This document shows, in pieces, positions 15,314 to 31,052 of a stretch of 64,000 nucleotides of DNA. How positions within the stretch are numbered: position 1 is the first letter of the stretch; the number at the start of each line of letters is the position of its first letter. The notes beneath the pieces are model-generated. The model was not told the origin of the DNA. It saw only the letters and a program-made list of their open reading frames with translations, and made no database searches. The stretch lies in the NCBI GenBank assembly GCA_013286795.1, contig JABDFA010000001.1:104970-168969 (forward strand). The letters are read 5' to 3'. The DNA comes from Candidatus Babelota bacterium (lineage in GTDB: Bacteria > Babelota > Babeliae > Babelales > JABDEC01). The position numbers and the translations under genes were made by a program.

Positions 15314-15967
15314 TTAAACTAAACACTTTTCTTTAGAATATTCAGTATATTCTAAAATTATATCAGCTAGTTCAGGCAATAAGCAACAGGATTCAACAAA
15401 TTCTTTGTGTAATTTTTGTCTTCTTCTTTTAGGCTCTTGCTTTATTAATTCAACCATAGCTTGTGTTTCGTTGGCCACCATTTCAGCATATCTAAAATTG
15501 GAGATCTCTAAATCAAAAGAAGCGCCTGCATATAGCAATAGCTTTGCTATAGTTATATTGCCTCTAGCCACTGCCCAATTTAGAGCAGTATCCCCTTTCC
15601 AATCTTTAATATCATAATTAGCATTGGCATCTAGAAGTAATTTCACTATTGCTTCATTTTTATTTATAGTGGCATGTATTAAAGCTGTATAACCACAGTT
15701 ACTTTGAATATCAGTGTCAGCCTCATTATCTAGCAGTAGTTTTACTATAGTTGCATAACCCTTGCTTGCAGCTTCAATTAAAGCTGTTTCATTAATCAAG
15801 TCAGGCTGATGATTTACATCTGCATACTCATCTAGAGCCTTCTGGACAAGTTTTATATTTCCTTCTTGGGCACCCCTGATGAGCATTTGATCAGGATTTT
15901 CGTCCATGCTATAAATTGATCCAATAGACCCTAGGCATATAAATGATAGTAATAATTTAAGTTTCAT
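15314..15967 (-). CDS. Leader-bearing ankyrin-repeat protein (family member 1) with C-terminal LLPELADIILEYT motif
   Basis: ANK repeats (TALIEAASKGYATIVKLLLDNEADTDIQ, YTALIHATINKNEAIVKLLLDANANYDIKD, DTALNWAVARGNITIAKLLLYAGAS). The start is set at ATG 15967-15965 (MKLKLLLSFICLGSIGSIYSM), preceded by GGAGG. The track start at 16069 adds an unsupported extension. Confidence 0.85.
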   Translation of the reverse strand: MKLKLLLSFICLGSIGSIYSMDENPDQMLIRGAQEGNIKLVQKALDEYADVNHQPDLINETALIEAASKGYATIVKLLLDNEADTDIQSNCGYTALIHATINKNEAIVKLLLDANANYDIKDWKGDTALNWAVARGNITIAKLLLYAGASFDLEISNFRYAEMVANETQAMVELIKQEPKRRRQKLHKEFVESCCLLPELADIILEYTEYSKEKCLV

Positions 15968-16146
15968 AATAAACCTCCAAAATCTATAAAAAATAAGATA
16001 TATAACTATTATTTTATAGACAAATAGTAAAAAGTCAAGTGCTAATTGTTTTGGAATTTTTATCCTCATAATTAATTTGTTGATTATTGCCCTTCTTGTT
16101 TTATATCCTAAAGAAAAGGGGAACCCTAAACATTAGGGAGAGTGGT

Positions 16147-16557
16147 ATGGAAAACTTGTCTTTGTCCTATTCTAATGAACAAAATATATTATATCTGCAA
16201 AATCAATTTTTAATAAATGGATTTCATTATTTTAAAGTTAAAAACATTTTAGATGGAAGAAAAATAATTTTAACCATGTTAAACTCTCTAAATTATTATA
16301 ATAATATTGCATGCTTAACTTCTAATAATAATGAATTTAGAGAAAATGTTTTTGATATTTATTACACTTTAACAAAAGAAAACTCTACAGAAAATATTGA
16401 TAATTTAGTAAATTTCTTTTTAGAAACTTTTGATTTCGATTTTATGTGGATAGAGGAATCAAAAGATTTTATAGAAACAAGTTGGTATAAAATCTTTAAA
16501 CAACATTTAATTGATTTTAATTTTTATAAAGTTATACCCATTATGATAATCTCTTAA
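16147..16557 (+). CDS. Hypothetical protein (no recognisable domain)
   Basis: Open frame. ATG at 16147 is preceded by GGGAGAG; the TTG at 16087 in the track is less likely. N/F/Y-rich and without a signal peptide. Confidence 0.5.
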   Translation: MENLSLSYSNEQNILYLQNQFLINGFHYFKVKNILDGRKIILTMLNSLNYYNNIACLTSNNNEFRENVFDIYYTLTKENSTENIDNLVNFFLETFDFDFMWIEESKDFIETSWYKIFKQHLIDFNFYKVIPIMIIS

Positions 16558-16571
16558 ATATTAGGATAAAA

Positions 16572-17051
16572 TTGATAATTTTAGGTATAGATCCTGGATT
16601 GCATATTTCAGGATATGCGGTTATAAAAAAAAACGGATCACAAATTATATTGATAGAGCATGGTTTTTTAAAAATGAATCCTACAAAATCAATACCAGAA
16701 CGTATTTTAGAATTTCACTCTTATTTTGATCATAAGATTAAGATTTTTGATGTTTCTGTCGTTTCACTTGAAACCCCATTTCTTGGTCGCAATGCCCAAA
16801 ATTTTTTGAAACTAGGTTACTTGAGAGGAATATTATACCTTTTGTCAAAACAGAATGATTTAAAAATTCATGAGTTTTCACCCAGACAAATCAAGCAATC
16901 TATCACAGGTTTTGGGGGGGCAGGAAAAGATCAAGTAGCACGAGTTATCTTACAATTTTTTCCAGCATTGCAGATGCCAAAAAAATTGGATGTTACAGAT
17001 GCCATAGCTATAACTTTATGTGGTGTCTGGAAGTCAAATCTAAGATTATAG
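16572..17051 (+). CDS. ruvC: Crossover junction endodeoxyribonuclease RuvC
   Basis: (M)IILGIDPGLHISGYAVIKK... , ..LETPFLGRNAQNFLKLGYLRG.., GFGGAGKDQV and DVTDAIAIT carry the RuvC acidic catalytic residues. TTG start. Confidence 0.9.
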   Translation: MIILGIDPGLHISGYAVIKKNGSQIILIEHGFLKMNPTKSIPERILEFHSYFDHKIKIFDVSVVSLETPFLGRNAQNFLKLGYLRGILYLLSKQNDLKIHEFSPRQIKQSITGFGGAGKDQVARVILQFFPALQMPKKLDVTDAIAITLCGVWKSNLRL

Positions 17052-17651
17052 TTTTGATCTTAATTCTGGAGCAATAGTTATTGGATTTTGATCTTTATTA
17101 TTTTTATCAAGTTTAATAAAGGGTATAGGATTATAGTTAGAACCTTCTGTCATATATTTGTAACAATTGAAGTAGTAATTAATTATTTTTATTTTAATTT
17201 CTGATTTAGCTTTATCTACTTTTTCTTTATAAGCTTTTGCTATTTTAATTTGATCTGAACTATAGTTATTGGTTAAGATGACTTTTTCTGCATCACTTTT
17301 AGCTTTAGAAAGAGCATTCAAATAAGCAATAGATAGTTTTTTGTATTCATCGCAAGATTCTTGAGTGATTTTATCGAATTTATTATCATAGTCTCTATTG
17401 GCCACGTCTACGAATAGTACATTTATTGATTTAATTAAATTTTTTATTTTTTCTTTAGACTCTTCAGGTAATATTGAGTTTAAAGGAGGCTCATAAATTG
17501 TTTTAGGATTTACCTCTAATAAAAATAAATTTAATATTTCTTCTACAGCTCGTTTTTTTTCTTTATAATCAAATGTCTGAAATTCTTTTTTCCAATCAGC
17601 ACAATATAAGTTAGTAGTAAATGTTATAAATATTAAAACCTTTTTGATCAT
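17046..17651 (-). CDS. Hypothetical exported protein
   Basis: N-terminal signal-like MIKKVLIFITFTTNLYCADW; the remainder is K/E-rich and probably helical. No family recognised. Confidence 0.5.
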   Translation of the reverse strand: MIKKVLIFITFTTNLYCADWKKEFQTFDYKEKKRAVEEILNLFLLEVNPKTIYEPPLNSILPEESKEKIKNLIKSINVLFVDVANRDYDNKFDKITQESCDEYKKLSIAYLNALSKAKSDAEKVILTNNYSSDQIKIAKAYKEKVDKAKSEIKIKIINYYFNCYKYMTEGSNYNPIPFIKLDKNNKDQNPITIAPELRSKL

Positions 17652-17710
17652 ATTTTCCCAAATTTAAATATGTCTGATAATGTGTATTATGTAAAAAGAA
17701 CTACTGTTTT

Positions 17711-18748
17711 TTAAAAACTAAAAAATTGATTCTTGAAATCATTTAAATCAAGTTTATTGTTATCCCTAAAAAGGTTACCATAATAAATTTTGTTTTCAAA
17801 GAGCTTAGGAGAAAAAAATATCTGCATATATTTAGCTGATGTCTTTTTATGTATAATTTTTTTTAACACATCAAAGCAATATATGTCAATATTTAAATTA
17901 TTTTGGTCATAATTGCAAAAAAAGATCTTTTTTGAAAGAAAAAGAGGCAAAAATGGCAAAATTGACATTTCAGATTCCTTGACAAGCAAAGGCAAGGCAA
18001 AGGTAAAAATCTTTTCACTATACCAATCCTCGCCCTCTTTTTTTAATCTATGGCAAAAGAAATTTATTGTATTTGCAAATTCATCTATATTTTTTTCATA
18101 TTCAATTACAAATCCTTCATCTGGGCCAATCATATTCAGAAAAAATATTGGGGTTTTTTCAAAGTTATAAACCAGTTTTTTTACTTTATGATTCATAACA
18201 AATATTTTATAAAAGCTTTTATGTTTTCTAAATTTAGTATCAGTATATTTACTTATATAAAAATATTGAGAATCAACTTTCTGTGGAAAAAAAATTTCTT
18301 CTTCTTCATCTTCCAAAACAGTTTCAATGCAATTATTATCGATATTCATTAATGCTATAAAACTCTTATTGCCTTTTTTTGCGCTAAAATAAAATTCATT
18401 TTTATTGATCCAGTTGATAAAGCTTATATTATATATTGGCTCAGAGAAATTAATTTTATTTAAAATATTATTCTCTAGGCTTCCTATCCTTATTATTCCA
18501 TTATCTTGAAAACTAAAATTTTGCGTATCAGGTATAACTTTGAAATCCCAAAAATTTATTTTACTTCTATTTATTATTTCTTGAATTTTATTATCATTTG
18601 GATTATAAACTAACAATTCTGATTGATTTTTATAGGTATGAACTAAAAAGATATATTTAGTTTTACTATCTATAGCTACTGGGTGCACAAATTCGCATGA
18701 AAGGGTTATATTAGTGTAAAAGAAGAAAAAAGTTATTATTTTAATCAC
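17711..18748 (-). CDS. Hypothetical exported protein (345 aa)
   Basis: Hydrophobic N-terminus MIKIITFFFFYTNITLSCEF. An N/F/K-rich body with beta-strand-like periodicity. No family recognised. Confidence 0.5.
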   Translation of the reverse strand: MIKIITFFFFYTNITLSCEFVHPVAIDSKTKYIFLVHTYKNQSELLVYNPNDNKIQEIINRSKINFWDFKVIPDTQNFSFQDNGIIRIGSLENNILNKINFSEPIYNISFINWINKNEFYFSAKKGNKSFIALMNIDNNCIETVLEDEEEEIFFPQKVDSQYFYISKYTDTKFRKHKSFYKIFVMNHKVKKLVYNFEKTPIFFLNMIGPDEGFVIEYEKNIDEFANTINFFCHRLKKEGEDWYSEKIFTFALPLLVKESEMSILPFLPLFLSKKIFFCNYDQNNLNIDIYCFDVLKKIIHKKTSAKYMQIFFSPKLFENKIYYGNLFRDNNKLDLNDFKNQFFSF

Positions 18749-18843
18749 TATTTACTCAATCTAAAATTTCTACTTCTTTTACTTATACATCAAAACAATT
18801 ATTTCATCTACAACACAAAAATACGAACTAATTCTGGCAGCAA

Positions 18844-19695
18844 CTATAAAGTTTGTTGTTTTTCTTTTGGACAAACAGCATACTCTGAAACTATCTCAGC
18901 CAATTCTGGCAATAAATATTCAGATTCAACAATTTTTTTAACATCTTGTCTTAATTTCTCTCTTTTTTCATATTCTTTTTTTATTAAGTCTTCTATAGAT
19001 TTATGTTTTACTATTTTTGCTATACCTAAAGCTGTTTGACCTCTATAATTTGTTAAATATAAAGAAGCTCCAGCTTCTAATAATAACTTTACTATGGCTT
19101 CTTGATTAGATACCGCAGCGAGCATTAAAGCTGTGTAGTCTCCATCATTTTGAATATCAGGATCAGCGCCATTTTCTAATAATACCTTTATTATATTTTC
19201 ACTATCTTTTATTATTACAGCCATTATTAAAGCTGTATCACCTCTTTTATTTTTATAATTTATATCTGCATTTCTCTGAATAGCACCAAGAACCAAAGAT
19301 ATATCTCCATTGGATGCGCCACTGAAAAGCATTTTATTTGCTTCATGATGCTGTCTTCCTTTTTTATATTCGTTTTCTATTAACAGTTTTATAGGAGCTG
19401 TTTTTGCTAAATCTAAAGCCGTTTTGCCCTTATTATTTTTTAAATCTAGAGAGACTCCAGAAGCTAATAATAGCTTTACCATGGCTTCATAAGAACTAAT
19501 TACAGCTTCCATTAAAGCTGTATAACCGTTTCCATCTGCAGTATTTATATCTGCGTTTTGCGCAAGAGCTTCTTGAACAAGTTTTAGATCGCCGCTTCTA
19601 GCACCTTTAATAAGCATTTTATCAGCATCGCTCATGCTATAAATTGCCCCAATAAATCCCAAGCAAATAAATGTGAATAATAATTTAAATTTCAT
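18844..19695 (-). CDS. Leader-bearing ankyrin-repeat protein (family member 2), two ANK blocks, C-terminal module ...KKEYEKREKLRQDVKKIVESEYLLPELAEIVSEYAVCPKEKQQTL
   Basis: Leader MKFKLLFTFICLGFIGAIYSM. Repeated G.TALM.AV......VKLLLE.GA..D. units. GGAGG RBS in the 9-bp spacer to the upstream gene. Confidence 0.9.
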   Translation of the reverse strand: MKFKLLFTFICLGFIGAIYSMSDADKMLIKGARSGDLKLVQEALAQNADINTADGNGYTALMEAVISSYEAMVKLLLASGVSLDLKNNKGKTALDLAKTAPIKLLIENEYKKGRQHHEANKMLFSGASNGDISLVLGAIQRNADINYKNKRGDTALIMAVIIKDSENIIKVLLENGADPDIQNDGDYTALMLAAVSNQEAIVKLLLEAGASLYLTNYRGQTALGIAKIVKHKSIEDLIKKEYEKREKLRQDVKKIVESEYLLPELAEIVSEYAVCPKEKQQTL

Positions 19696-19704
19696 GTCAA
19701 CCTC

Positions 19705-20331
19705 CTACAAAGTTCGTTTTTCTTTTGGACAAACAGCATACTCTGAAACTATCTCAGCCAATTCTAGAACTATATCAGCTAAATCTGGCAATAGATATTT
19801 GTCAGTAATTTCTTTATAAACATCATTTCTGAATTTTTCTCTTCTTGCATGTTCATTTTCTATTAGATCTATCATAGCAAGATATCTTCTTCTAGATCTA
19901 TATCTATATTCTTCTTTTTTTACTATATCTAAAGCTGTTTCTCCCTCACTATTTTTTAAATCTAAAGAAGCGTCATTTTCTAACAACAGCTTTGCTATAT
20001 CTTCTTTGGCAAAGAATGCAGCATTCATCAAAGCTGTATCGCCATTGTTATCTTGAATATCAGGATTAGCGCCATTATTTAATAACAACTTTACTATATA
20101 TACAGAACCATTAACTATAGCTTTATGTAAGGCTGTATAACCGTATCTATTTTGATAGTTTACATCAGCCTTATTTTTAAGGGCCTTTAGAACAAGTCTG
20201 ATGTCGCCTTCCTCAGCACCCATAATGAGCATTTCATTAGGAGTTTCATGTATGATGAATGTTTCTTCCATTGTATAAAGTGACCCAATAAACCCCAAAG
20301 ACAAAATTGAGAATAATAATTTAAATTTCAT
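19705..20331 (-). CDS. Leader-bearing ankyrin-repeat protein (family member 3) with a chimeric, partly duplicated C-terminal motif LLPDLADIVLE-LAEIVSEYAVCPKEKRTL
   Basis: Leader MKFKLLFSILSLGFIGSLYTM. ANK repeats (YTALHKAIVNGSVYIVKLLLNNGANPDIQD, DTALMNAAFFAKEDIAKLLLENDASLDLKN). The tail DNA at 19705-19765 is identical to the tail of 20482-21252 except one base. Confidence 0.9.
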   Translation of the reverse strand: MKFKLLFSILSLGFIGSLYTMEETFIIHETPNEMLIMGAEEGDIRLVLKALKNKADVNYQNRYGYTALHKAIVNGSVYIVKLLLNNGANPDIQDNNGDTALMNAAFFAKEDIAKLLLENDASLDLKNSEGETALDIVKKEEYRYRSRRRYLAMIDLIENEHARREKFRNDVYKEITDKYLLPDLADIVLELAEIVSEYAVCPKEKRTL

Positions 20332-20340
20332 GTTAACCTC

Positions 20341-20472
20341 CTATAAAATTTCTTTAGATATATCTCCATTGGATGCGCCCAAAATAAGCATTTTATTAGG
20401 AGCCTGACCCATGCTATAAATTGCCCCAATAAATCCCAAGCAAATAAATGTGAATAATAATTTAAATTTCAT
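20341..20472 (-). pseudogene. 43-codon remnant of an ANK-family gene (leader plus first half-repeat, then stop)
   Basis: The minus strand reads MKFKLLFTFICLGFIGAIYSMGQAPNKMLILGASNGDISKEIL*. The leader DNA is identical to that of 18844-19695, and GASNGDIS matches the internal string of that gene. It keeps the same GGAGG spacer but is too short for an ANK fold. Confidence 0.7.
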
Positions 20473-20481
20473 GTCAACCTC

Positions 20482-21252
20482 CTACAAAGTTCGTTTTTCT
20501 TTTGAACAAACAGCATACTCTGAAACTATCTCAGCCAATTCTGGCAATAAATATCCAGATTCAACAATTTTTTTAACATCTTGTCTTAATTTCTCTCTTT
20601 TTTCATATTCTTTTTTTATTAAGTCTGCTATAGATTTATATTTTTTTCTTTTTGCTATATCTAAAGCAGCTTCCCCCTTATTATTTTTTAAATCTAAAGA
20701 GACGCCAGCTTCTAATAATAGTTTTACTATTAGTGGATAATTATTATATACAGCCCACATTAAAGCTGTGTCACCTGTTTTGTCTTTAATATCAAGATTA
20801 ACGCCTCTATGCAGTAGTAGCTCCACAATAGATTTACAATTATCAGGTATAGCCCACATTAAAGCCGTAGCGTTGTTTTCACCGCCTTTAATATCAGGGT
20901 TGGCACCTCCGTCTAACAATAGTTCCACTATATTGTCATGGCGACACCTATGAGATGCAGCTAAAATTAAAGCTGTGTCGTCTTCATCATTTTGAAGATC
21001 AGGATCAGCGCCATTTTCTAGTAATAGTTTTACTATGGATTCATGACCATTATCTGCAGCTATCATTAAAGCTGTAAAGCCATATATATTTTTATAATTT
21101 ACATCAGCTTTCTCTTTAAGGGCTTCTTGAACAAGTTTGATGTCGCCTTCCCCCTCGGCGCCTCTAATGAGCATTTCATTGGGATCCTGCATACTGTAAA
21201 TTGACCCAATGAATACTAAAGATAGAAGCGATATTAATAATTTAATTTTCAC
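20482..21252 (-). CDS. Leader-bearing ankyrin-repeat protein (family member 4) with C-terminal LLPELAEIVSEYAVCSKEKRTL
   Basis: Leader MKIKLLISLLSLVFIGSIYSM. Five to six ANK units (FTALMIAADNGHESIVKLLLENGADPDLQN and others). The 3' 134 bp is near-identical to 18871-19004. Confidence 0.9.
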   Translation of the reverse strand: MKIKLLISLLSLVFIGSIYSMQDPNEMLIRGAEGEGDIKLVQEALKEKADVNYKNIYGFTALMIAADNGHESIVKLLLENGADPDLQNDEDDTALILAASHRCRHDNIVELLLDGGANPDIKGGENNATALMWAIPDNCKSIVELLLHRGVNLDIKDKTGDTALMWAVYNNYPLIVKLLLEAGVSLDLKNNKGEAALDIAKRKKYKSIADLIKKEYEKREKLRQDVKKIVESGYLLPELAEIVSEYAVCSKEKRTL

Positions 21253-21323
21253 AATAACCTCCCTATATTAGTAGAATCATATATATATAATATTATCAAA
21301 TAGAAAATGTACAGTCAAGGCTG

Positions 21324-22691
21324 TTATTCATTGTCTATAAACTTAGTAAGTTCTTTCTGGAATTCTAAATAAAGTGTACCTGTAGGACCATTACGTTGTT
21401 TACCTATTATTAATTCTGCCATAGATGGGTTTTCTGTATCTTGATTATAAACAACATCTCTGTATAAAAACATTATTAAATCAGCGTCTTGCTCAATAGC
21501 ACCTGATTCTCTTAAATCAGAAAGCATGGGTCTTTTATCCATACGAGCATCTACGGCCCTAGAAAGTTGTGAAAGAGCTACAATGGGTATTTTTAATTCT
21601 TTTGCCAACCCTTTTAAGGCCCTAGAAATCTCTGATACCTCCTGATGTCTATTTTCATGCTTTTTGGTTGAATGTAATAATTGAAGATAATCTATCACTA
21701 ATAACTGTAAATTGTGATCAACTTTTAACTTTCTAGCTTTGGCCCTAAGATCCATTATACTCAAGGCTGGGGTATCATCAATAAATAATTTATAGTTTGC
21801 TAATTTAGCAGCTACACTTGTAAGTTCGATCCATTCATCTGAAGATATTGTCGCATTTCTTATTTTATGCAAGGAAATATTTGATTCTGTCGACAATAAC
21901 CTCAAGGTTAATTGTTCTGCTGACATTTCAAGAGAAAATACTCCTACCGTAATACCATTAAGAGCTGCATTGGTTGCAATATTTAAGGCTAGGGAAGTTT
22001 TTCCCATAGAGGGTCTTGCTGCTAATATTATAAGATCCCCATTTTGCATACCCGAGGTAATTTCATCTAATTTTTTAAATCCAGAAGAGATCCCGGTTAT
22101 TCCTCTACTGTGAGCCTTAATATCTGAAAGATGAGAGAACGTCTTTTTTAACCATATATTTAATTGAACAAAAGACTGATTAGAACGCTTGTTGGAAATT
22201 CTAAATATTATTTTTTCTGCTGTATCTAGTACCGAGTCAATTTCTTCATCATTCTGAGAATAACAATTAGATATGATCTCGGTGGCTGATCCAATCAATT
22301 CTCTTAAAACAGACTTTTCTTTGATGATTTTTGCATGTTGCTCTACAAGACCAGATAAATGAATATCTTCTTGCAAAGAGATTAGATATACTAGCCCACC
22401 AACGAAATCTATTTGTTTTTTTTTTTCTAATTCGTCTTGCAATGTAACAAAATCAATTCTTTTCCCCTTTTGCGATAATTCTAACATAATTTCATATATT
22501 ATTTTATGACTTATATTATAAAAATCTAAAGGCAAGAGAATTTCGCCAACTTGATTAAAATTAGAATCATTTAATAAAATGGCACCTAAAACAGCTTTTT
22601 CTGCATCAACATTTGATGGAAGTTGTTTGCCCAAAACAGACTCTATTACATCGTTAGAGTTATTTTTTTTTGGATGAAATGTTTTAAGCAT
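21324..22691 (-). CDS. dnaB: Replicative DNA helicase DnaB
   Basis: LPSNVDAEKAVLGAILL (N-domain), Walker A AARPSMGKTSLALN, Walker B LLVIDYLQLL, then SRALKGLAKELKIPIVALSQLSR..E.R.DKRPMLSDLRESGAIEQDAD. Confidence 0.95.
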   Translation of the reverse strand: MLKTFHPKKNNSNDVIESVLGKQLPSNVDAEKAVLGAILLNDSNFNQVGEILLPLDFYNISHKIIYEIMLELSQKGKRIDFVTLQDELEKKKQIDFVGGLVYLISLQEDIHLSGLVEQHAKIIKEKSVLRELIGSATEIISNCYSQNDEEIDSVLDTAEKIIFRISNKRSNQSFVQLNIWLKKTFSHLSDIKAHSRGITGISSGFKKLDEITSGMQNGDLIILAARPSMGKTSLALNIATNAALNGITVGVFSLEMSAEQLTLRLLSTESNISLHKIRNATISSDEWIELTSVAAKLANYKLFIDDTPALSIMDLRAKARKLKVDHNLQLLVIDYLQLLHSTKKHENRHQEVSEISRALKGLAKELKIPIVALSQLSRAVDARMDKRPMLSDLRESGAIEQDADLIMFLYRDVVYNQDTENPSMAELIIGKQRNGPTGTLYLEFQKELTKFIDNE

Positions 22692-22696
22692 TCTTT

Positions 22697-23140: not shown

Positions 23141-23224
23141 GGTTATCCTATAATTAATAATTTAATTAATTATAGTATACTCAAAAAAAGCAATTTTTTA
23201 AAATTTATACTAATTTATTCTAGG

Positions 23225-24337
23225 TTATTTTTGTTTTGGACAAACTGCATACTCTGAAACTATATTAGCTAAATCTGAAGGTAGATACTTATCAACAATT
23301 TTTTTAACATCTTGTCTTAATTTCTCTCTTTTTTTATATTCATTTTCTATTAGTTCTATGTTATATTCATTTCCTATACCTCTCGCATAATCTAATGCGG
23401 TTTTACCATCTTTATCTTTTAAATCTAAATCAGCACCAGCTTCTAACAAGAGTTCTACTATGACTTTATTATATTTATTAGCAGCCAACATTAAAGCTGT
23501 ATCTCCTCGATTGCTTTTAATATTAGGATTAGCACCATTTTCTAATAAAAAATTCACCATTTTATTATCTTGACTTCTTGTAGCATACATCAAAGCTGTC
23601 CACCCACTTTCGTCTTGATAATTTATATTTGTTTGATAATTTATATTTGCAGCAATTTTTTTATTACCAAACATAGCACTTTTAACTGAAGTCAATATTG
23701 AAGCTATATAACCCTCTTTATAATCCTCTTTTTTTTGTCCAATAGATTCTCGAACCTGTTCAAAATTCCTTGTTGATGCACCACCCAAGAGCATTTCATG
23801 CTGTCTTCTGTATCTTAGATATTCACGAGCTGTTTTTCCCTCTTTATTTGGTAAATCTAAATTAGCGCCTTTATGTATCAATAATTCTCTTATATCTTCA
23901 TGATTCATAATTGCAGCATACATTAAAGCTGTATAACCTTCATTATTTTGAATATTAGGGTTAGCGCCATTTTCTAATAATAGTTTTGCTGTACTATAGG
24001 CTACATCACAGCCTATATAATAGCCCTTATAAGGCCTTGATGCGACATACATTAAAGCTGTATAACCTTGATTATTTTGAATATCAGGATTAGCACCCCT
24101 ATCTAATAGTAGTTTTACTATTCCTGTATTGTATTTAAGACCACTCCACATTAAAGCTGTCCAACCATGTCTATCTTTATAATTTATATCTGCTTTTTGC
24201 TCAAGAGCTTCTTGGACAAGTTTGATATCATCAATTTCTGAACCTCTAATGAGCATTTCATTGGGTGATTCACTCATGGTATAAAGTGATCCAATAAATC
24301 CCAAAGATGTAAGCGATATCAATAATTTAAATTTCAT
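23225..24337 (-). CDS. Leader-bearing ankyrin-repeat protein (family member 5, 370 aa) with C-terminal LPSDLANIVSEYAVCPKQK
   Basis: Leader MKFKLLISLTSLGFIGSLYTM. Two ANK blocks separated by a non-ANK linker. C-terminal module ENEYKKREKLRQDVKKIVDKYLPSDLANIVSEYA. Confidence 0.9.
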   Translation of the reverse strand: MKFKLLISLTSLGFIGSLYTMSESPNEMLIRGSEIDDIKLVQEALEQKADINYKDRHGWTALMWSGLKYNTGIVKLLLDRGANPDIQNNQGYTALMYVASRPYKGYYIGCDVAYSTAKLLLENGANPNIQNNEGYTALMYAAIMNHEDIRELLIHKGANLDLPNKEGKTAREYLRYRRQHEMLLGGASTRNFEQVRESIGQKKEDYKEGYIASILTSVKSAMFGNKKIAANINYQTNINYQDESGWTALMYATRSQDNKMVNFLLENGANPNIKSNRGDTALMLAANKYNKVIVELLLEAGADLDLKDKDGKTALDYARGIGNEYNIELIENEYKKREKLRQDVKKIVDKYLPSDLANIVSEYAVCPKQK

Positions 24338-24346
24338 ATTAACCTC

Positions 24347-25276
24347 CTATGAAAGTTTTTTTTCTATTAGATCTACTATAGATTTATTTTCTTTTTCTAT
24401 TGCTATATCTAAAGCTGTGTGACCATATTGATTTGTTAAATATAAAGCAGCACCAGCTTCTAATAACAGCTTTGTTGTGTCTACTTGACTAAATGCAACT
24501 GCCAACATTAAAGCTGTATAACCTTGATTATTTTGAATATTAAGATTGGCACCATTCTTCAATAATAACTTTAATATATCTCCTTGAGCAAGCATTAAAG
24601 CCGTCAAACCATTTTTATCTTTATAATTTACATCTGCACCATCTTGAAGAGCTTTTTGAACGAGTATTATATTATTATCTTGCGCACCCTTTAAAAGCAG
24701 CTGATTTGAAGGATCTTTTTGTTTTGAATAATTTGCATATTCTAGAACTATATTAGCCAAATCTGGCAATAGATATTTGTCAGTAATTTCTTTATGAACA
24801 TTCTGTCTGAATTTCTCTCTTTTTTCATATTCTTTTTTTATTAAATCTTCTAAAGATTTATATTTTTCTTTTTTTGCAATATCTAAAGCTGTTTGACCAT
24901 ATTGATTTGTTAAATCTAAAGAAGCACCAGATTCTAACAACAGTTTTACTATAGTTTCTCGAGAAAGAGATGCAGCGAACATTAAAGCTGTATAGCCATT
25001 ATTATTTTGAATATCAGGATCAGCGCCATTATTTAATAACAACTTTGTCATATATAAATTTGCAGCACTCATTAAAGCTGTATTACCATATATATTTTTA
25101 TAATTTACATCAGCTTTCTTTTTAAGGGCTTCTTGAACAAGTTTCATATCACCATTTTCAGCGCCCCTAACAAGCATTTCATTAGGAGTTTCATATCGGA
25201 TGAATGTTTCTTCCAGTGTATAAATTGACCCAATAAATCCCAAACAAATAAATATGAATAATAATTTAAATTTCAT
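24347..25276 (-). CDS. Two-module ankyrin-repeat protein (family member 6): a complete leader-ANK-motif unit fused in frame to a second, leaderless and motif-less ANK unit
   Basis: Leader MKFKLLFIFICLGFIGSIYTL. The internal module KKEYEKREKFRQNVHKEITDKYLLPDLANIVLEYANYSKQK (motif at nt 24734-24772) is followed by DPSNQLLLKGAQDNNIILVQKALQDGADVNY, which resembles the mature N-terminus of other members. The protein ends DLIEKKLS. Confidence 0.9.
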   Translation of the reverse strand: MKFKLLFIFICLGFIGSIYTLEETFIRYETPNEMLVRGAENGDMKLVQEALKKKADVNYKNIYGNTALMSAANLYMTKLLLNNGADPDIQNNNGYTALMFAASLSRETIVKLLLESGASLDLTNQYGQTALDIAKKEKYKSLEDLIKKEYEKREKFRQNVHKEITDKYLLPDLANIVLEYANYSKQKDPSNQLLLKGAQDNNIILVQKALQDGADVNYKDKNGLTALMLAQGDILKLLLKNGANLNIQNNQGYTALMLAVAFSQVDTTKLLLEAGAALYLTNQYGHTALDIAIEKENKSIVDLIEKKLS

Positions 25277-25324
25277 GTCAACCTCCCCATTAACTTTATA
25301 TTAAAAATTCATAATAGTAAATAT

Positions 25325-25354
25325 ATTATACCCTAGCAAGATAAAAAGAAGCAA
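25325..25354 (-). promoter_or_regulatory. Candidate promoter for the ANK6-ANK5(-rplI-dnaB) transcription unit
   Basis: On the minus strand: TTGCTT (25354-25349), an 18-nt spacer, then perfect TATAAT (25330-25325), ~50 nt upstream of ATG 25276. The -35 element is weak. Confidence 0.3.
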
Positions 25355-25441
25355 GAATCTAATTATTATTTCAGAACAATTACATAGGTTACCCTGAAAA
25401 AGAGGAGTTTTTTTTTATTTTTGTATTTATAACCCTTCACA

Positions 25442-25888
25442 TCAATTGCTAATTATAAACTTTTGCAAAGGCTTATTTTGTTCAAAAACTAACTCTCTAT
25501 GAATATTCGTTTTAATTATTATTTCATTCTCGCTACCTGATTCTACCGTTAATGCTTCAATAGATAGCTCCGGATCATTTTTCTTTAATTTCAAAAGAGC
25601 ATCGTAATTTATTATATCACCATCCGGCCAATTTCCCTTAAAAATCACTTTTTCTGAATGATTTTCATATTTTTCTATGAGTGCATAATTATTTATACAA
25701 AAGTATGTACCAAACTTACAAAGAGCTTCTGTGGCCCTATATTGTTTTTCATATGTATATTTTTTTGCAACAGAATCCTGTAAAAGTGCTATATTTTGCC
25801 AATAATTAATAAAATATAGAGATATTATCGACAATACAAGTACTAAAACCAAAACTACAAAACCTTCTTTGTTTTTCATAATATTCAC
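25442..25888 (-). CDS. Hypothetical membrane-anchored protein, possibly a degenerate pseudopilin (last gene of the minor-pilin cluster)
   Basis: N-terminus MNIMKNKEGFVVLVLVLVLSIISLYF has a G-F-hydrophobic stretch but lacks the Glu/Asp at +5. The call rests mainly on context with the two upstream prepilin-like genes. Confidence 0.35.
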   Translation of the reverse strand: MNIMKNKEGFVVLVLVLVLSIISLYFINYWQNIALLQDSVAKKYTYEKQYRATEALCKFGTYFCINNYALIEKYENHSEKVIFKGNWPDGDIINYDALLKLKKNDPELSIEALTVESGSENEIIIKTNIHRELVFEQNKPLQKFIISN

Positions 25889-25917
25889 ATTCTAAAAATT
25901 CTAAGACTATGTTAGCT

Positions 25918-26412
25918 TTATATAGAAATAAGAAATACTTCTGATCTAGTAGACACAAGATTTTCAATTTTTTGCAAAAAGTTGTTTATTTTAAATTCTA
26001 TAGTTGTTTTTAAGAGCTTTTGATTTTCACTGACCCTAAATTCTAATCTATGTATATCTTTAGCGACCAGACTTTCGGTTTTATCTGCCCAGGTATCATT
26101 CATGGGATTATATTTTCCTATAGTTCTATACAGTCTATCTTGATCTAACTTCCAACCCACTTCATGATCTTTAGTTGAAAAAATTATTTCCTCCCTTTGT
26201 TGTTTTTTATAGCCATGATATAAACATTGGCGAATATCGTTATCTAAGAGATCAAGAGCTGTCCAGTACATTGTTTTTTGTGTGCAATTTTTGTATTTCG
26301 AGCCGTATTTACTATAGTTTTGTGCAGCAAACTGAAATATGGTCAAAATTAATAGCGAAGAAAGAAATATATATATTAATGTTTCTATTAATGTAAATCC
26401 TAAAGATTTCAT
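25918..26412 (-). CDS. Prepilin-type N-terminal cleavage/methylation domain protein (minor pseudopilin, GspJ/PilW-like size)
   Basis: MKSLGFTLIETLIYIFLSSLLILTIF is the canonical G|FTLIE prepilin peptidase motif followed by a hydrophobic helix. 164 aa. Confidence 0.7.
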   Translation of the reverse strand: MKSLGFTLIETLIYIFLSSLLILTIFQFAAQNYSKYGSKYKNCTQKTMYWTALDLLDNDIRQCLYHGYKKQQREEIIFSTKDHEVGWKLDQDRLYRTIGKYNPMNDTWADKTESLVAKDIHRLEFRVSENQKLLKTTIEFKINNFLQKIENLVSTRSEVFLISI

Positions 26413-26771
26413 ATTATTATTGCTGTTATCATACTTATTTGATGCTCTTTTTCTGTTTTCCAGTATGTGTTTATTTTTAGAACAATGAACTTATTTATGG
26501 TATTTTTCAAAATCTCAATTTTTATAGTAAAAATATCTACTTTTATCTCTTTTCTATCATATATTTTTATTTTACTGCCATTAATCTCTTCTATTATATT
26601 GTTTGAGATGTTTAACGCTCTTCTAAATAAATCTATCTCTTTCTCTTGTTTTATAAGTTGCCAGTTAGCGCAGGCCATAGATAAACAGATTATTGAAAAT
26701 ATTCCAATTGAAATTACTAGATCTATTAATAAAAATCCGCTATAATTATAAATATGATTATTGTTATACAT
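26409..26771 (-). CDS. Pseudopilin-like protein (GspI/PilV-like size) with a degenerate prepilin motif
   Basis: ...YSGFLLIDLVISIGIFSII: G-F-L-L-I-D, with Asp in place of Glu at +5, followed by a hydrophobic helix. 120 aa, with a 4-nt overlap with the downstream pseudopilin gene. Confidence 0.5.
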   Translation of the reverse strand: MYNNNHIYNYSGFLLIDLVISIGIFSIICLSMACANWQLIKQEKEIDLFRRALNISNNIIEEINGSKIKIYDRKEIKVDIFTIKIEILKNTINKFIVLKINTYWKTEKEHQISMITAIII

Positions 26772-26831
26772 AAATTATTGTTATTTCTTTAAAACTTTAT
26801 TTATACATAACATAAAGAGAAAGGATATTAA

Positions 26832-28712
26832 ATGAGATTTTTTAAATTTTTATTTATTTTATTTTTTTGCATTTTAAATGCTTCAAATAATTTATTTTCT
26901 TTGGACCCTTTTCATTTGTCTCCAGAAGATGCCAAATTTATTGATGAAATCTTAGGAACGATCCCTCCGGAAGAAAGAGATCAAATTAAAGGTCAGATTT
27001 TTGAAGAAGTTAATCGCTTTCAACAGATGACTCCACAAGATCAGGATCTTTATCTTCAAAATAAATTCAAAGAAATGGAAACCCTTACAACTAGTCCACA
27101 ATCTCCACAAGCGCCAAATCTTGGTCCAAATGAAAATGCTGAACCCATTAGTACAAAATTTCAAGAGACAGAATCAATCGCACCCGAATCTATATCTATA
27201 ACGCCTAAGATCGCAACCTCAAAAGCTGATACAAATTTATTAACTATTTTAGAATCATTATCTGATTCAATAGATTTATTGTTAATTAAGGTTAAAGCTC
27301 TGCCCAGAGTATCACAACAAAGAAAAGTTGAAAAAGAGTGGCTCAAGTTAAAAGCAGATTTACATGATCTAGAATCTTATCTTCGCATTGTTATATTTCA
27401 AAAAAAGGCATTGAAAGCTTTGTCATCAGATGAGTATAAAAATTTAAAAAATAATTTGAAAACTCTAGAAAGTAATCTTTCTGGCTTAGTTGAGAACTTG
27501 AGTATTTATTTACCAGATACAGCCGGACTAACTATTTCTTTTGGAGAAGAGGATTTTAGTGTCGAAAAAAAGAATGAAAGCAAGGCACAAAAAATATTAT
27601 CAGACATTATGTCATTACTAACAAATAACCTTGAAAGCAAAAATATTAATGAAGATCTAAAATCTTTATTAAAAAAACATGCCCCTGAAGAATTAAAAAA
27701 GAAAGAATTACCATTGGCTCCAGAACCGTATATGTCAGCTCAACGTAGTTACACCTCCCCTTCTTTTGGTGGTGGCGGTGGCTATGATTACAACCCAGGC
27801 TATTACCCTTACCGCCCTTCTTTTGGCGATGGTGCCGGTTCTACTCCATCAACACAGGGCGCTACCAAGTCAGGTTTAGAAACAAAAGATGAATCTAAAA
27901 AAGATAAAGGTGGTACTAGTGGTGGTGGTGGTGGCAAAGGCAAAGGTGCCTCAGGCGTTCCAGACAAGGATAAAGATAAGGACAAATCCAAAGACAAAAA
28001 AGAGGATAAAGACAAAGAAAAAGATAAAGACAAAAAAGAAGATAAAAAAGATAGTAAAGATAAGGTAAAAAAGAAAACAAGATCTGCTGCACAGAAAAAA
28101 AGATCTAAGTATGGCAATCCTGAAATAGAGGCATTTTTAAGAAAGCTAGAGGATTATTTAGTTGAATTTTCAAATTTAGTAGACAAAGACTCTGTAGACA
28201 TTTTACTTAAAGGTGAAGATAAAAAAATAAAAGATGATTTCAAAAAAGCAGCTGGTCTATATGATAATCATATACTAAAGTTATCAAGCCATATAGGAAA
28301 ACACTTAGGAAATCTACATAAAGACGCTAAACCTTTATTAATGAAGTCTATCAAGGAAATTTATGATGATCCTGATTACGAGCTTGAAAAGACTTACAAA
28401 AAAATTAAGACTTCTTTATTAATTCTTGAAGGTCAAGATTTAAAGGGTGACCAAAAAGAACAAAAGCGTATCTTAGAAGATCTTAATGCTAAGATGATTC
28501 GACTCAAACAGGATCTAGGTTTAGAGCCTAAGCAAAATGTTGCAACTCAACAACAATTTGGTAGTCCGGTTACAAGCAACCCTGACCTAGCTCAAGGTAA
28601 TACAGATGTTGAATATGAAGTCGAAGGTGATGGTCCAATGTTTGATAATGATGGCAACGCTTATTTCTCTAATTTGGATCAGGATAAAATATCAGATAAA
28701 CTAGGAGCGTAG
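26832..28712 (+). CDS. Large exported low-complexity protein (626 aa) with a G/Y/P-rich segment and a (K/D/E)n tract
   Basis: Signal-like MRFFKFLFILFFCILNASNN. Central FGGGGGYDYNPGYYPYRPSFGDGAGS, then GGGGGKGKGASGVPDKDKDKDKSKDKKEDKDKEKDKDKKEDKKDSKDK. No family recognised. Confidence 0.6.
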   Translation: MRFFKFLFILFFCILNASNNLFSLDPFHLSPEDAKFIDEILGTIPPEERDQIKGQIFEEVNRFQQMTPQDQDLYLQNKFKEMETLTTSPQSPQAPNLGPNENAEPISTKFQETESIAPESISITPKIATSKADTNLLTILESLSDSIDLLLIKVKALPRVSQQRKVEKEWLKLKADLHDLESYLRIVIFQKKALKALSSDEYKNLKNNLKTLESNLSGLVENLSIYLPDTAGLTISFGEEDFSVEKKNESKAQKILSDIMSLLTNNLESKNINEDLKSLLKKHAPEELKKKELPLAPEPYMSAQRSYTSPSFGGGGGYDYNPGYYPYRPSFGDGAGSTPSTQGATKSGLETKDESKKDKGGTSGGGGGKGKGASGVPDKDKDKDKSKDKKEDKDKEKDKDKKEDKKDSKDKVKKKTRSAAQKKRSKYGNPEIEAFLRKLEDYLVEFSNLVDKDSVDILLKGEDKKIKDDFKKAAGLYDNHILKLSSHIGKHLGNLHKDAKPLLMKSIKEIYDDPDYELEKTYKKIKTSLLILEGQDLKGDQKEQKRILEDLNAKMIRLKQDLGLEPKQNVATQQQFGSPVTSNPDLAQGNTDVEYEVEGDGPMFDNDGNAYFSNLDQDKISDKLGA

Positions 28713-28912
28713 GCTGCCAAAAAATTTACCCTGTAATACCTCCTTTTTAAAAATTTTTTAAAGCCGGAGCCTTGCGACGCCTATAAGAAGTTTACATGAA
28801 GCGTGCTTTAACGTTATGCGACAATCAACTCTATAAGCCCTCCCGGTTTTAGTCAAGATGCTCATTATGCGACATTAATCGCATTATTTCGAATCCTGCG
28901 GCTGACTCTTGC

Positions 28913-28941
28913 TTGACTATTTCTGCATTACATGCTATAAT
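28913..28941 (+). promoter_or_regulatory. Near-consensus sigma70 promoter for the ANK gene at 28981
   Basis: TTGACT (28913-28918), a 17-nt spacer, then TATAAT (28936-28941), 40 nt upstream of the GTG start, which is preceded by GGAGGG. Confidence 0.6.
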
Positions 28942-28980
28942 TGCTATTAGATAATTAGATCTGTAAAATATGGAGGGCTT

Positions 28981-29784
28981 GTGAAAAAATTAATTTTAAC
29001 TTTATCATTAATCGCTTTATCAACGTCGTTATTTACAATGGAGGAACAACCTGCAAAAAAACACAAGGGCTGCTTATCAAGAATTCTAAATTTTAGACAA
29101 AATCAAAGAGAACTAAAAGATATAAAAAAAGAGTTAGCTAACTTAAAATTAGCTGCAGCTAAAACAGTAGAAGAAGCTCAAGCAGCAATTAAAGAAGGAG
29201 CAGATATCAATAAAAAAGAAAATGGCCGCACTCCATTAAGTTTCGCATTAATTCGTTGCGAACCACAAGTAGCAGAATTTTTAATAAATATGGGCGCAGA
29301 TATACATAGCAAAGATGAAAATGGCAACTCATTTGTAACTAATGCATTACATGGAGAATGTTATGACGTAGCTCGTTTGCTTATTAAAAAAGGTGTTGAT
29401 GTCAAAAATGTATCAACTCTAAACACTGCAGTCAATAGCGAACAGATAGATCTAGTAAAAATGATATTAGACAAAGGAGTAAACATTAACTCACAAAATG
29501 AATATGGTATAACACCTCTTATGAATGCTATAAAACAAGGAAATTTAGAAATGGTTAAGTTTCTTGTTAATAACGGGGCTGAAATTGATATTAAAGATAA
29601 AAATGGCAAAACAGCCCTAGATTATGCAAGACAAAGCGATAATCAAGAGATTATAGAATTTTTAGATAATACATATCGACCATTTTTAACAAGCAAAATT
29701 TTAGAAGTTACAAATTTAATACCAGATGTTGCCAATATAGCTTCAGACTATTGGTCCAGCACTCCTGAAGAAATAACTATTTAG
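28981..29784 (+). CDS. Leader-bearing ankyrin-repeat protein (divergent family member 7) with C-terminal LIPDVANIASDYW motif
   Basis: GTG start after GGAGGG. Leader (M)KKLILTLSLIALSTSLFTMEEQP. ANK units (RTPLSFALIRCEPQVAEFLINMGADIHSKD, ITPLMNAIKQGNLEMVKFLVNNGAEIDIKD, KTALDYARQSDNQEIIEFL). Confidence 0.85.
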   Translation: MKKLILTLSLIALSTSLFTMEEQPAKKHKGCLSRILNFRQNQRELKDIKKELANLKLAAAKTVEEAQAAIKEGADINKKENGRTPLSFALIRCEPQVAEFLINMGADIHSKDENGNSFVTNALHGECYDVARLLIKKGVDVKNVSTLNTAVNSEQIDLVKMILDKGVNINSQNEYGITPLMNAIKQGNLEMVKFLVNNGAEIDIKDKNGKTALDYARQSDNQEIIEFLDNTYRPFLTSKILEVTNLIPDVANIASDYWSSTPEEITI

Positions 29785-29864
29785 AACAAGAATGTTGATT
29801 TTTCTATTTGTATTTGATATCATATATTATAGTAAGTATAAAATATAAAAAATATGGAGGATTT

Positions 29865-30323
29865 ATGAAAAATTTAAAGTTAACTATTTTAACAATTACT
29901 CTATTAATCTACATACCTTCAGTATTTACAATAGATATGGATGTAGATGAACAAACAGAACAGACAAAAAAAGAAATATTAAACAAATTAGAATCAGGTG
30001 GCCTGTATACCGACCTATCAAATATAATTCTAGATTATGTTGGCAGCATAGAAGACCTGATATTAAATGCCATGCTTTTAGATGCTGCAAGAAATCTTGA
30101 TACCAAGCTTATTTATAAAGCTGTTAAATTAGGCGCAGATGTTAATGCTAAAGATGCAAAAAATTATACGGCGTATGATTATATTGAGAAGGCTTATAAA
30201 AAGTTATATGGTAATGGTTCGCATATAAATCCAAATGATATAGATGCATTAACTGAATACTCTAATTTAATGCCATTTTTAAAACCCAAAAAACCCGTAG
30301 AATACGAAAGCATTTGGTATTAA
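29865..30323 (+). CDS. Small leader-bearing protein with an N-terminal LYTDLSNIILDYV motif followed by one or two ANK-like repeats (family member 8)
   Basis: ATG 29865 is preceded by GGAGG (the track start at 29808 is unsupported). Leader MKNLKLTILTITLLIYIPSVFT. LLDAARNLDTKLIYKAVKLGADVNAKD is ANK-like. Confidence 0.65.
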   Translation: MKNLKLTILTITLLIYIPSVFTIDMDVDEQTEQTKKEILNKLESGGLYTDLSNIILDYVGSIEDLILNAMLLDAARNLDTKLIYKAVKLGADVNAKDAKNYTAYDYIEKAYKKLYGNGSHINPNDIDALTEYSNLMPFLKPKKPVEYESIWY

Positions 30324-30337
30324 AATATATAAAACTG

Positions 30338-30688
30338 TCATTTTATTTTATGAGTACCAAGCTTATGTTTAGCTAGTGCGCCCATATGTTGAAATTTGCA
30401 TCCACAATCACAGACACAACTTCCTGAAACTAAGTGGTACTTTTCATGTCTTTGAACATTTGATTTTAAATTCGAAGAATATTGATACCCATTAATACAA
30501 TATCTACATTTAAATTTCTTTTCAGAAATAGCTGCTGCAGAAACTTTAGATTTAATATAGCGTTTAATAAGATCACTTTTTATTTTTTTACTCTTATCTA
30601 AAGTTTTAGCTTTAACTTGAGCAAACTCTTCCATGCCAAAAATAGTTAAGTGAAAATTTAATAACAAAAAAAACAGTTTAATTTTCAT
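30338..30688 (-). CDS. Leader-bearing protein with two C2H2-type zinc fingers
   Basis: Leader MKIKLFFLLLNFHLTIFGMEE. Finger 1 is CRYC-INGY-QYSSN-L-KSNVQR-H-EKY-H. Finger 2 is C-G-C-K-F-QHMGA-L-AK-H-KLGT-H, with the aromatic-x5-Leu-x2-His spacing of classical C2H2 fingers. Confidence 0.7.
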   Translation of the reverse strand: MKIKLFFLLLNFHLTIFGMEEFAQVKAKTLDKSKKIKSDLIKRYIKSKVSAAAISEKKFKCRYCINGYQYSSNLKSNVQRHEKYHLVSGSCVCDCGCKFQHMGALAKHKLGTHKIK

Positions 30689-31052
30689 TTTTATTAACCT
30701 CTTGTTTAATTGAATTTAATACATCAGTAAGTTCTGAATCGCTAAGCGTATACAATGGATAAATTTTATTATGTGTAACAAAATTTTGATGCTGTTCGAT
30801 AAGATTATATAATTTTTTTATTTGAATAAGCCTGTCAGGATTATGCTTAGAATGCAATTGAAGACAATATGAATAAATTTTATTAAGTTGGCCTCCAGAA
30901 TATTTTCTATCAAAGCGCTTTAAGCCAAAAAAATTATAAGCTAATTCTTTTTCAGAACCAGAGCTAAAAGATCTTAAAAATGTTCTTTGCATGCCAGTTA
31001 AGGGGATAAAAAAGTTTAAGAAAATTAAATTTAAAATGAAAATCTTTTGCAT
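30678..31052 (-). CDS. Small leader-bearing hypothetical protein with weak J-domain-like similarity
   Basis: Leader MQKIFILNLIFLNFFIPLTGMQ. AYNFFGLKRFDRKYSGGQLNKIYSYCLQLHSKHNPDR loosely follows the J-domain pattern YY..LGl......eIkkAYrkLa.kyHPDk, but with HNPD instead of HPD and extra residues. Confidence 0.5.
   Translation of the reverse strand: MQKIFILNLIFLNFFIPLTGMQRTFLRSFSSGSEKELAYNFFGLKRFDRKYSGGQLNKIYSYCLQLHSKHNPDRLIQIKKLYNLIEQHQNFVTHNKIYPLYTLSDSELTDVLNSIKQEVNKNEN

Follow-up and report, generated by a model that had tools for sequence, protein, structure and literature searches.

The locus studied here raises the question of what a conserved hydrophobic leader, ending in a Met that is followed by acidic residues, does at the N-termini of a set of eukaryote-like proteins. 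It lies in a 64,000-nucleotide stretch of Candidatus Babelota bacterium (GenBank assembly GCA_013286795.1, contig JABDFA010000001.1, positions 104,970 to 168,969), which is called the window and numbered from its first nucleotide. An earlier model-made reading of the letters, done without database searches (the sequence-only reading), had reported the leader on nine open reading frames (ORFs) and a gene remnant between 15314 and 31052, among them ankyrin-repeat (ANK), zinc-finger and J-like proteins. Our analysis led from this leader to its end point. A junction made of a small residue, Met and Asp or Glu recurs throughout the phylum Dependentiae, where it marks secreted proteins of an accessory, effector-like kind; as far as we can tell, this mark is new. 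Signal peptides on Dependentiae ANK proteins have already been published; no earlier description of the Met–acid junction was found in the literature consulted.

Protists are the hosts of Dependentiae, which are obligate intracellular parasites. The G+C content of the window is 30%, and its DnaB (21324–22691, minus strand) is 73–74% identical to DnaB of metagenome-assembled genomes (MAGs) of Candidatus Babeliales/Dependentiae (TM6). The same DnaB was also found on a Logan contig from run SRR8433578. The JGI contig L087 is syntenic with the window and closely related to it, with an FtsW that is 94.6% identical. An Rfam scan of the window returned two tRNAs only.

Leaders of the ANK family

All ORFs of the sequence-only reading were present at their positions with the N-termini it had quoted. 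Pfam ANK matches with E values of 1e-18 to 1e-44 confirmed the ANK label in seven of them, including 28981–29784. Six of the ANK genes, all on the minus strand, and a remnant of 43 aa carry a leader of 21 residues with the consensus MK[FIL]KLL...[FS]IG[SA][IL]Y[ST][M/L]. The leaders read MKLKLLLSFICLGSIGSIYS (15905–15967, 21 codons; gene 15314–15967), MKFKLLFTFICLGFIGAIYS (19633–19695; gene 18844–19695), MKFKLLFSILSLGFIGSLYT (20269–20331; gene 19705–20331), VKIKLLISLLSLVFIGSIYS (21190–21252, GTG start; gene 20482–21252) and MKFKLLISLTSLGFIGSLYT (24275–24337; gene 23225–24337), each followed by Met. In the sixth gene (24347–25276), MKFKLLFIFICLGFIGSIYT (25214–25276) is followed by Leu, encoded by CTG. 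The Met, which had been called near-invariant, was thus found in most leaders but not in this paralogue.

A GGAGG Shine–Dalgarno (SD) motif was located 5–6 nt 5′ of the first codon in each of the six genes. For gene 15314–15967, the ORF can be extended up to 16069, but the SD precedes 15967 and the extension is unused. GTG starts were observed in two leader-bearing ANK genes, 20482–21252 and 28981–29784; a good SD accompanies both, and leader conservation begins at the GTG codon. The remnant (20341–20472, minus strand) consists of the leader and the first ANK cap, and its stop overlaps the SD of the next gene.

A leader-only hidden Markov model (HMM), built from 25 ANK family members, matched ANK family members only (E < 3e-7). 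The near-identity of leaders claimed for ten sequences was upheld by this model for seven, the six ANK genes and the remnant, and not for the three other ORFs. A 43-column profile of the leader plus ANK cap found no matches in genome contigs or metagenome contigs, and among 5.8 billion proteins it matched the window's own remnant alone. With a full-length ANK query, about 20 family members that share this leader and tail were retrieved from other contigs, indicating that the negatives of the short profile were failures of sensitivity and not absence of the family. The leader/tail family is confined to the window's lineage and its close relatives.

The leaders were then compared with known signal peptides. 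Their n-regions are MK(F/I/L)K in the seven family leaders and MKK, MKIK and MQK in the other three. The h-region has a mean Kyte–Doolittle value of 2.0–2.9 across 12 residues from residue 5, the hydrophobic core spans 12–14 residues, and between the n-region and the junction the family leaders carry no charged residue. The sequence-only reading had judged the junction not to be a canonical signal-peptidase site. It had drawn the cut after the Met; drawn before the Met, the cut fits the −3/−1 rule of signal peptidase I in every case. The sites in the window are I-Y-S↓M, L-Y-T↓M, I-Y-T↓L, L-F-T↓M, I-F-G↓M and L-T-G↓M (↓, predicted cut), with Gly at −5.

The same pattern was present in an alignment of 26 family members from the window and other contigs. 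The −1 residue was S, T or G in all 26, −2 was Tyr in 24, −3 was I, L, V or T in 24, and Gly occupied −5 in 21. At the junction itself, 23 members had Met, two had Leu and one had Ser. Conservation ends at the Met, and the residues beyond it vary, with indels. Together with the L087 orthologues, which retain the Met, the 23 of 26 members indicate that the residue is conserved in relatives, a point on which the sequence-only reading had made its proposal depend.

An acidic early mature region is usual in Sec substrates. Judged from these features, the leaders are securely Sec-type signal peptides with a canonical site ahead of the Met. They are probably cleaved there, with the Met as the first residue of the mature protein (P1′); we hold this explanation, taken as a whole, with fairly good confidence. 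Signal peptidase I would cut after [I/L]-x-[S/T/G], directly before the Met, and an acidic or polar residue would come next. Next to a family member, on a contig of the same sample that need not belong to the window's chromosome, lies a gene for signal peptidase I (Peptidase_S26, E = 9e-31). Payne et al. 2012 (PMC3509430) describe taxon-specific replacement of the AxA signal-peptidase I motif in low-alanine prokaryotes. The S/T/G at −1 and I/L at −3 of the window fit that description, and S/T/G in place of Ala at −1 is what it leads one to expect for an alanine-poor proteome. As its abstract puts it, the work concerns replacement of Ala, whereas the signal studied here is Met-Asp/Glu at +1/+2 in one protein class and is not proteome-wide.

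Three other kinds of leader were considered and rejected. A lipoprotein signal peptide for signal peptidase II does not fit, with no Cys at or adjoining the junction and Tyr at −2. A Tat signal peptide does not fit the MKxK n-regions, which are without RR. In a type IV prepilin-like leader, the Met would not come after the hydrophobic segment as it does in the ANK leaders. A prepilin motif was found only in a neighboring pseudopilin-like gene (25918–26412).

The Met–acid junction across Dependentiae

The phylum sample consisted of 80 Dependentiae dnaB loci, 1.33 Mb in total, with about 20 kb around dnaB per genome. A weight-matrix cleavage predictor was noisy and spread the ANK family over several sites. 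It was replaced by two measures that do not depend on cleavage, namely the residue preceding the first charged residue after the hydrophobic core, and a hydrophobicity change-point. As an outgroup control, a small one, 250 kb of E. coli K-12 were run through the identical pipeline.

Met stood right before the first charged residue after the core in 69 of 479 signal-peptide-like N-termini (14.4%) outside the window. It was the commonest residue at this position, compared with 2–5% at each neighboring position and 1.9% overall. In the 69 cases, −1 was mostly small (A38, S11, G6, C3 and T3; 61/69), −3 was L18, I14, T10, A7 or V7 (56/69), and the residue after the Met was E33 or D27 (60/69), a textbook signal peptidase I site with Met and an acidic residue behind it. 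The E. coli control gave none in 40. The junction was spread over 39 independent BLAST families and 32 of 78 loci, at 29–45% G+C.

The junction was unevenly distributed among protein classes. It was found on 63 of 357 accessory plus ANK proteins versus 1 of 64 conserved exported proteins (p = 2e-4). ANK proteins had it in 12 of 28 cases (43%), and other accessory proteins in 51 of 329 (16%; p = 1e-3). With the change-point predictor, Met fell at +1 in 12% of the accessory proteins, 28% of the ANK proteins and 2% of the conserved ones. Pfam ANK domains occurred in 23 of 68 Met-junction proteins versus 11 of 101 accessory leaders that lack the Met junction. C2H2 zinc fingers, LRR and WD40 were also among the Met-junction proteins.

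The change-point predictor also found D or E after the junction Met in 26 of 48 cases. In leaderless proteins of the same loci, the second residue was D or E in 9–14%, and K was commonest. Between genomes, the Met was retained in 42% of homologue pairs against about 25% identity at the flanks, a measure that is biased by alignment scoring.

It had been suggested that the leader is specific to the eukaryote-like set. The junction was indeed enriched on ANK and accessory proteins and nearly absent from conserved exported ones, but the class is not exclusive: 11 of the 101 accessory leaders without the Met also carry ANK. Two secreted WD40 propeller proteins of the window (5019–7363, minus strand) use a leader ending ...PFCINA↓[A/T]ELKEK, of the INA↓[A/T]E type, without Met. 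Since the junction was on a single conserved exported protein of the 64 and the Met was kept in relatives, the idea of a special class of exported proteins survives.

The WD40 proteins are adjacent paralogues (5019–6203 and 6203–7363, minus strand; Pfam WD40 E = 2e-59 and 7e-40). They are eukaryote-like and have a shared signal peptide of their own, ...LLILALPFCINA↓[A/T]ELKEKKETPSAL.

Tandem families with family-specific leaders ending in Met were also seen in other Dependentiae loci of the sample (L045 14750–21234, L065 4519–9382 and L014 365–4373). Their leaders end in ...HQLNAM↓[D/E] in six paralogues, ...IFSM↓[D/E] in three ANK genes, and ...CWAM↓VEVEDAPF. Homologues of the last family in L053 (10349–15820) have Phe or Leu for Met (...SLSA↓FENN). 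In L058 (8774–15028; Dependentiae MAG FK_Sedi_A_Bin.178), ANK genes with the leaders MKLKLLFLSILGLSFCLAM↓SPE and MKLKLLILSGVSFMYCMAM↓EQR lie directly 3′ of dnaB, an arrangement shared with the window.

Alternative readings of the junction Met

The sequence-only reading had proposed that the Met could be a second initiation codon. In such a case, the junction ATG would give a leaderless cytoplasmic isoform beside the exported one, and an ATG does fall exactly at the signal/mature boundary across many unrelated families. An SD-like motif was present at 65 of 82 first codons and at 4 of 82 junction Mets (1/82 by strict definition), rarer than the 141 of 1232 at random internal Mets. In the window sequences that were read, SDs lay 5′ of the first codons and none 5′ of the junction ATGs. 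The Met is also replaced by Leu or Ser in three of the 26 family members; in the window paralogue 24347–25276 the codon is CTG. These data make SD-driven dual initiation unlikely, and the proposal was not borne out. The U-rich, probably unstructured core codons 5′ of the Met could permit an SD-independent start, and about 30% of genes in the Dependentiae loci are without a recognizable SD. The small residues at −1 and −3 indicate a peptidase site rather than a ribosome site, and ANK effectors in its own cytoplasm would be of no evident use to an obligate parasite. Overall, we consider dual initiation improbable. The reverse error, in which the junction Met is the real start and AT-rich DNA 5′ of it is read as a K/F/I/L-rich pseudo-leader, is the least probable of all the readings and is largely refuted. 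Our gene caller chose the most upstream start that yields a signal-peptide-like N-terminus, which favors such extensions, as does the base composition of the window. The SD sits at M1 and not at the junction Met, leader conservation is at the protein level amid many synonymous differences, and loci reaching 45% G+C, where leaders are Ala-rich, have the junction too. The low counts for conserved exported proteins of the same genomes and for E. coli also stand against it.

A stronger rival holds that the Met is a relic, the old initiator of leaderless proteins (cytosolic or horizontally acquired, eukaryote-like) with no present function. Secretion would have been gained by joining a promoter–SD–signal-peptide module, or an upstream in-frame extension, to the 5′ end. 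The enrichment of the junction on accessory and ANK proteins and its near absence from old conserved exported ones favor this rival, and a tail–SD–leader module is demonstrably duplicated in the window. In Enterobacterales, whole signal peptides have been gained via acquisition of N-terminal regions (PMC5952966). The frequency of D/E after the junction Met, several-fold that at true second residues, is against a relic, as are the presence of the Met in nearly all of the diverged family, where the positions after it vary, and, with its bias, the retention of Met in homologue pairs. No leaderless homologue beginning at the Met was found in the sample, which held almost no leaderless homologues, so that the power of this search was near nil. 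We regard a relic start as possible, at a clear minority of the probability. A selected mature N-terminus is slightly favored over it, because the Met is coupled to an acidic residue far above real starts, marks where conservation of the leader block ends in a diverged family, and is kept in homologue pairs above its flanks by the biased measure. A further alternative is an uncleaved signal anchor, an N-in/C-out membrane helix with the ANK domain exposed to the periplasm or at the surface. The uncharged segment L5–M21 has 17 residues, near the minimum for a membrane span. Gly at −8 and −5 would break the helix, and the −3/−1 site, conserved in 26 of 26 family members and in 88% of Met-junction proteins, is needless for an anchor. 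We rate the anchor as very unlikely.

Several points weigh against a cleaved leader with a selected Met. We infer cleavage at the S/T/G–Met bond from the −3/−1 rule and our own heuristics, not from direct observation, and this adds to the case for the anchor. An alternative site four residues 5′, F-I-G-S↓I-Y-S-M, obeys the rule equally, and the uncharged 17-residue stretch could serve as an uncleaved signal anchor. The relic start explains the class bias equally well. The phylum statistics cover dnaB neighborhoods only. ORF and start calling and the signal-peptide heuristic were our own and crude, with clear false positives such as MurD, and the "conserved" class means homologues in at least 11 of the sampled dnaB loci and nothing else.

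What a selected Met–acid N-terminus may do

With the cleaved, selected N-terminus as the preferred reading, the proteins would travel through Sec to the periplasm and then out. The Met–acid N-terminus would be no accident but under selection for its part in a later step, either sorting at the exit from the periplasm or behavior in the host. One form of this idea is that the Met-Asp/Glu neo-N-terminus is a sorting or fitness tag that parts host-directed effectors from resident envelope proteins. Such a tag could direct the second step, from the periplasm to the outside or the host, or it could mimic a NatB-type N-terminus that is stable in host cytosol. We put the tag forward tentatively, in both its forms, as a rather speculative proposal. 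Among leaders without Met, the residues predicted at +1 by the noisy predictor included many destabilizing ones.

Second transport steps set by a short, often acidic motif that is exposed after cleavage are known from the Bacteroidetes lipoprotein export signal, the +2 Asp of Lol avoidance and the xE/Q/D of Plasmodium PEXEL. Their logic resembles that of Met-D/E sorting; this is a likeness and no claim of membership. In those cases the motif comes after a lipidated Cys or a cut by plasmepsin V, and none has Met at +1. For listeriolysin O, the residue exposed by signal-peptide cleavage sets the half-life in the eukaryotic cytosol by the N-end rule, and Met followed by Asp or Glu is a stabilizing NatB-type eukaryotic N-terminus. 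The likeness is purely hypothetical here, and Ala, Ser or Gly at +1 would be equally stabilizing.

To our knowledge, the usual effector injection systems are reported to be absent from Dependentiae. The Babela massiliensis report gives predicted signal peptides on 79 of 126 ANK proteins (PMC4378268), and the Chromulinavorax destructans report gives them on 78% of 98 ANK proteins (PMC6561590); in both, Sec-dependent secretion was inferred. These proteins belong to the same phylum, combine a Sec signal peptide with ANK repeats, and have the same inferred Sec secretion towards the host as the family described here. A term search of the two papers found neither family-level leader conservation nor a Met–acid N-terminus. 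Parts of type II secretion and the type IV pilus are listed as core genes of Dependentiae in PMC4776705.

Pseudopilin-like genes lie between the ANK clusters of the window (25442–26771, minus strand), with a prepilin N-methylation motif at E = 7e-4, below the Pfam cut-off. They may be candidates for a second export step by a type II secretion or type IV pilus system. Such genes are conserved 5′ of dnaB in about 50 Dependentiae loci. In locus L088 (4856–6019), a T2SS-E ATPase gene was observed immediately 5′ of an ANK family member.

Other ORFs with a Met-type junction

Three ORFs of the window outside the leader family also end their leaders at Met. The ANK gene 28981–29784 (plus strand) starts with GTG and has a distantly similar signal peptide, VKKLILTLSLIALSTSLFT↓MEE (28981–29040). 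The zinc-finger-like ORF 30338–30688 (minus strand) has a generic signal peptide, MKIKLFFLLLNFHLTIFG↓MEE (30632–30688), with an AGAGG SD 5′ of M1 and none 5′ of the junction Met. The "J-like" ORF 30678–31052 (minus strand) likewise has a generic signal peptide, MQKIFILNLIFLNFFIPLTG↓MQR (30990–31052), and an AAGGA SD 5′ of M1.

The leader HMM missed 28981–29784 and 30678–31052. It gave E = 8 for 30338–30688 and E = 1 for its L087 orthologue. Compared by sequence, the three ORFs carry unrelated signal peptides that have only the small residue↓Met–acid junction in common. The L087 orthologues of ORFs 30338–30688 and 30678–31052 retain the Met, and in the latter both flanks of the Met have changed while the Met has not.

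The domain labels of two of these ORFs did not hold up. The "C2H2" label of 30338–30688 was weak, with zf-H2C2_5 at E = 0.16 and zf-C2H2_3rep at E = 0.2, both below the cut-off. For the "J-like" 30678–31052, no DnaJ match was found up to E = 10. Pfam ANK gave no significant match in 29808–30323, 30338–30688 or 30678–31052.

An eleventh ORF with a similar leader, beyond the ten of the sequence-only reading, was found at 29865–30323 (plus strand). Its signal peptide MKNLKLTILTITLLIYIPSVFT↓IDMDVDE (29865–29930) has Met at +3 and not at +1.

Positions 26832–28712 (plus strand) encode a signal-peptide protein of 626 aa. It has a low-complexity core, Gly-rich and with KDKDKDK/KEDK, and no Pfam match, and it is 87% identical in L087. 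BLAST revealed apparent relatives with a "EDFEKELEEANKAIEE"-type segment in several dnaB loci.

Tandem paralogy and recombination in the ANK array

The family genes are arrayed in tandem, though dispersed, and all on one strand, and we are secure in attributing the near-identity of their leaders to tandem paralogy of one lineage-specific effector family. Repeat analysis detected seven copies of the SD plus leader segment. It also detected a module of 157 nt (19619–19775, minus strand) that comprises the 3′ tail of the upstream ANK gene, its stop, the SD and the leader of the next gene. A second copy, at 93% identity, lies at 20396–20552 (minus strand). The module could act as a substrate for unequal crossing-over. 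The 63 nt of leader DNA in the remnant are base-for-base identical to the leader of gene 18844–19695. Two ANK units are fused in gene 24347–25276, which has the tail motif in mid-gene, and gene 19705–20331 has a partly duplicated tail (LLPDLADIVLELAEIVSEY, 19705–19800).

Pairwise comparison of the leader codons gave 50 synonymous and 97 non-synonymous codon differences, indicating that leader conservation is more than recent conversion. Mean pairwise identity was 69% in the leader but only 34% in the ANK body; the last 45 residues reached 44%. Leader and 3′ tail would be held alike by purifying selection, and unequal recombination of the tail–SD–leader module would add to the likeness of the leaders. 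The ANK repeats between the constrained leader and tail would be left to diverge. The array is a fast-diversifying secreted family with constrained ends.

Conotoxins and the variable lipoproteins of mycoplasmas are multigene secreted families with a conserved signal and a hypervariable mature part. The ANK array resembles them in that its leader is more conserved than its body and in its recombination scars. Unlike them, it also has a conserved C-terminal tail, and its variable part consists of ANK repeats.

The tail, of about 45 residues ("...EYEKREKLRQDVKKIVESGYLLPELAEIVSEYAVCPKEK"), terminates ANK family proteins in the window and on other contigs. It was found at the 3′ ends of ANK genes at 18844–19000, 19705–19860, 20482–20640, 23225–23380 and 15314–15470, and internally in 24347–25276. 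Further tail or helix sites are at 29700–29784, 6000–6100 and 7150–7250. A tail-like helix, "LIPNLARLVQEY", comes after the signal peptide of both WD40 proteins. The segment "LYTDLSNIILDY" in ORF 29865–30323 is a helix similar to the ANK tail. By eye, the tail resembles F-box helix 1 (LPxE[IL]xxI), which would imply ANK plus F-box and F-box plus WD40 architectures. The mature part of one L058 protein opens with "DYFEMLPAEIVEKIV", an F-box-like helix. An F-box or PRANC identity of the tail was rejected, with no Pfam match up to E = 10 and no PDB profile match.

Implications for host-directed secretion in Dependentiae

Taken alone, the window yields the modest result of an ordinary Sec leader on a tandem gene family that recombines. 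Across the phylum, the idea that the Met–acid junction singles out a special class of exported proteins holds statistically. The published genomes had established only that most ANK and eukaryote-like proteins carry signal peptides. Accessory and ANK proteins bear the small residue–Met–Asp/Glu mark about ten times as often as conserved envelope proteins do, and the mark offers a first handle on how Dependentiae deliver such proteins to the host. It also suggests a cheap rule for effector prediction throughout the phylum. If the relic start is the true explanation, the mark would still record a large-scale conversion of cytosolic-type proteins into secreted ones by a parasite.

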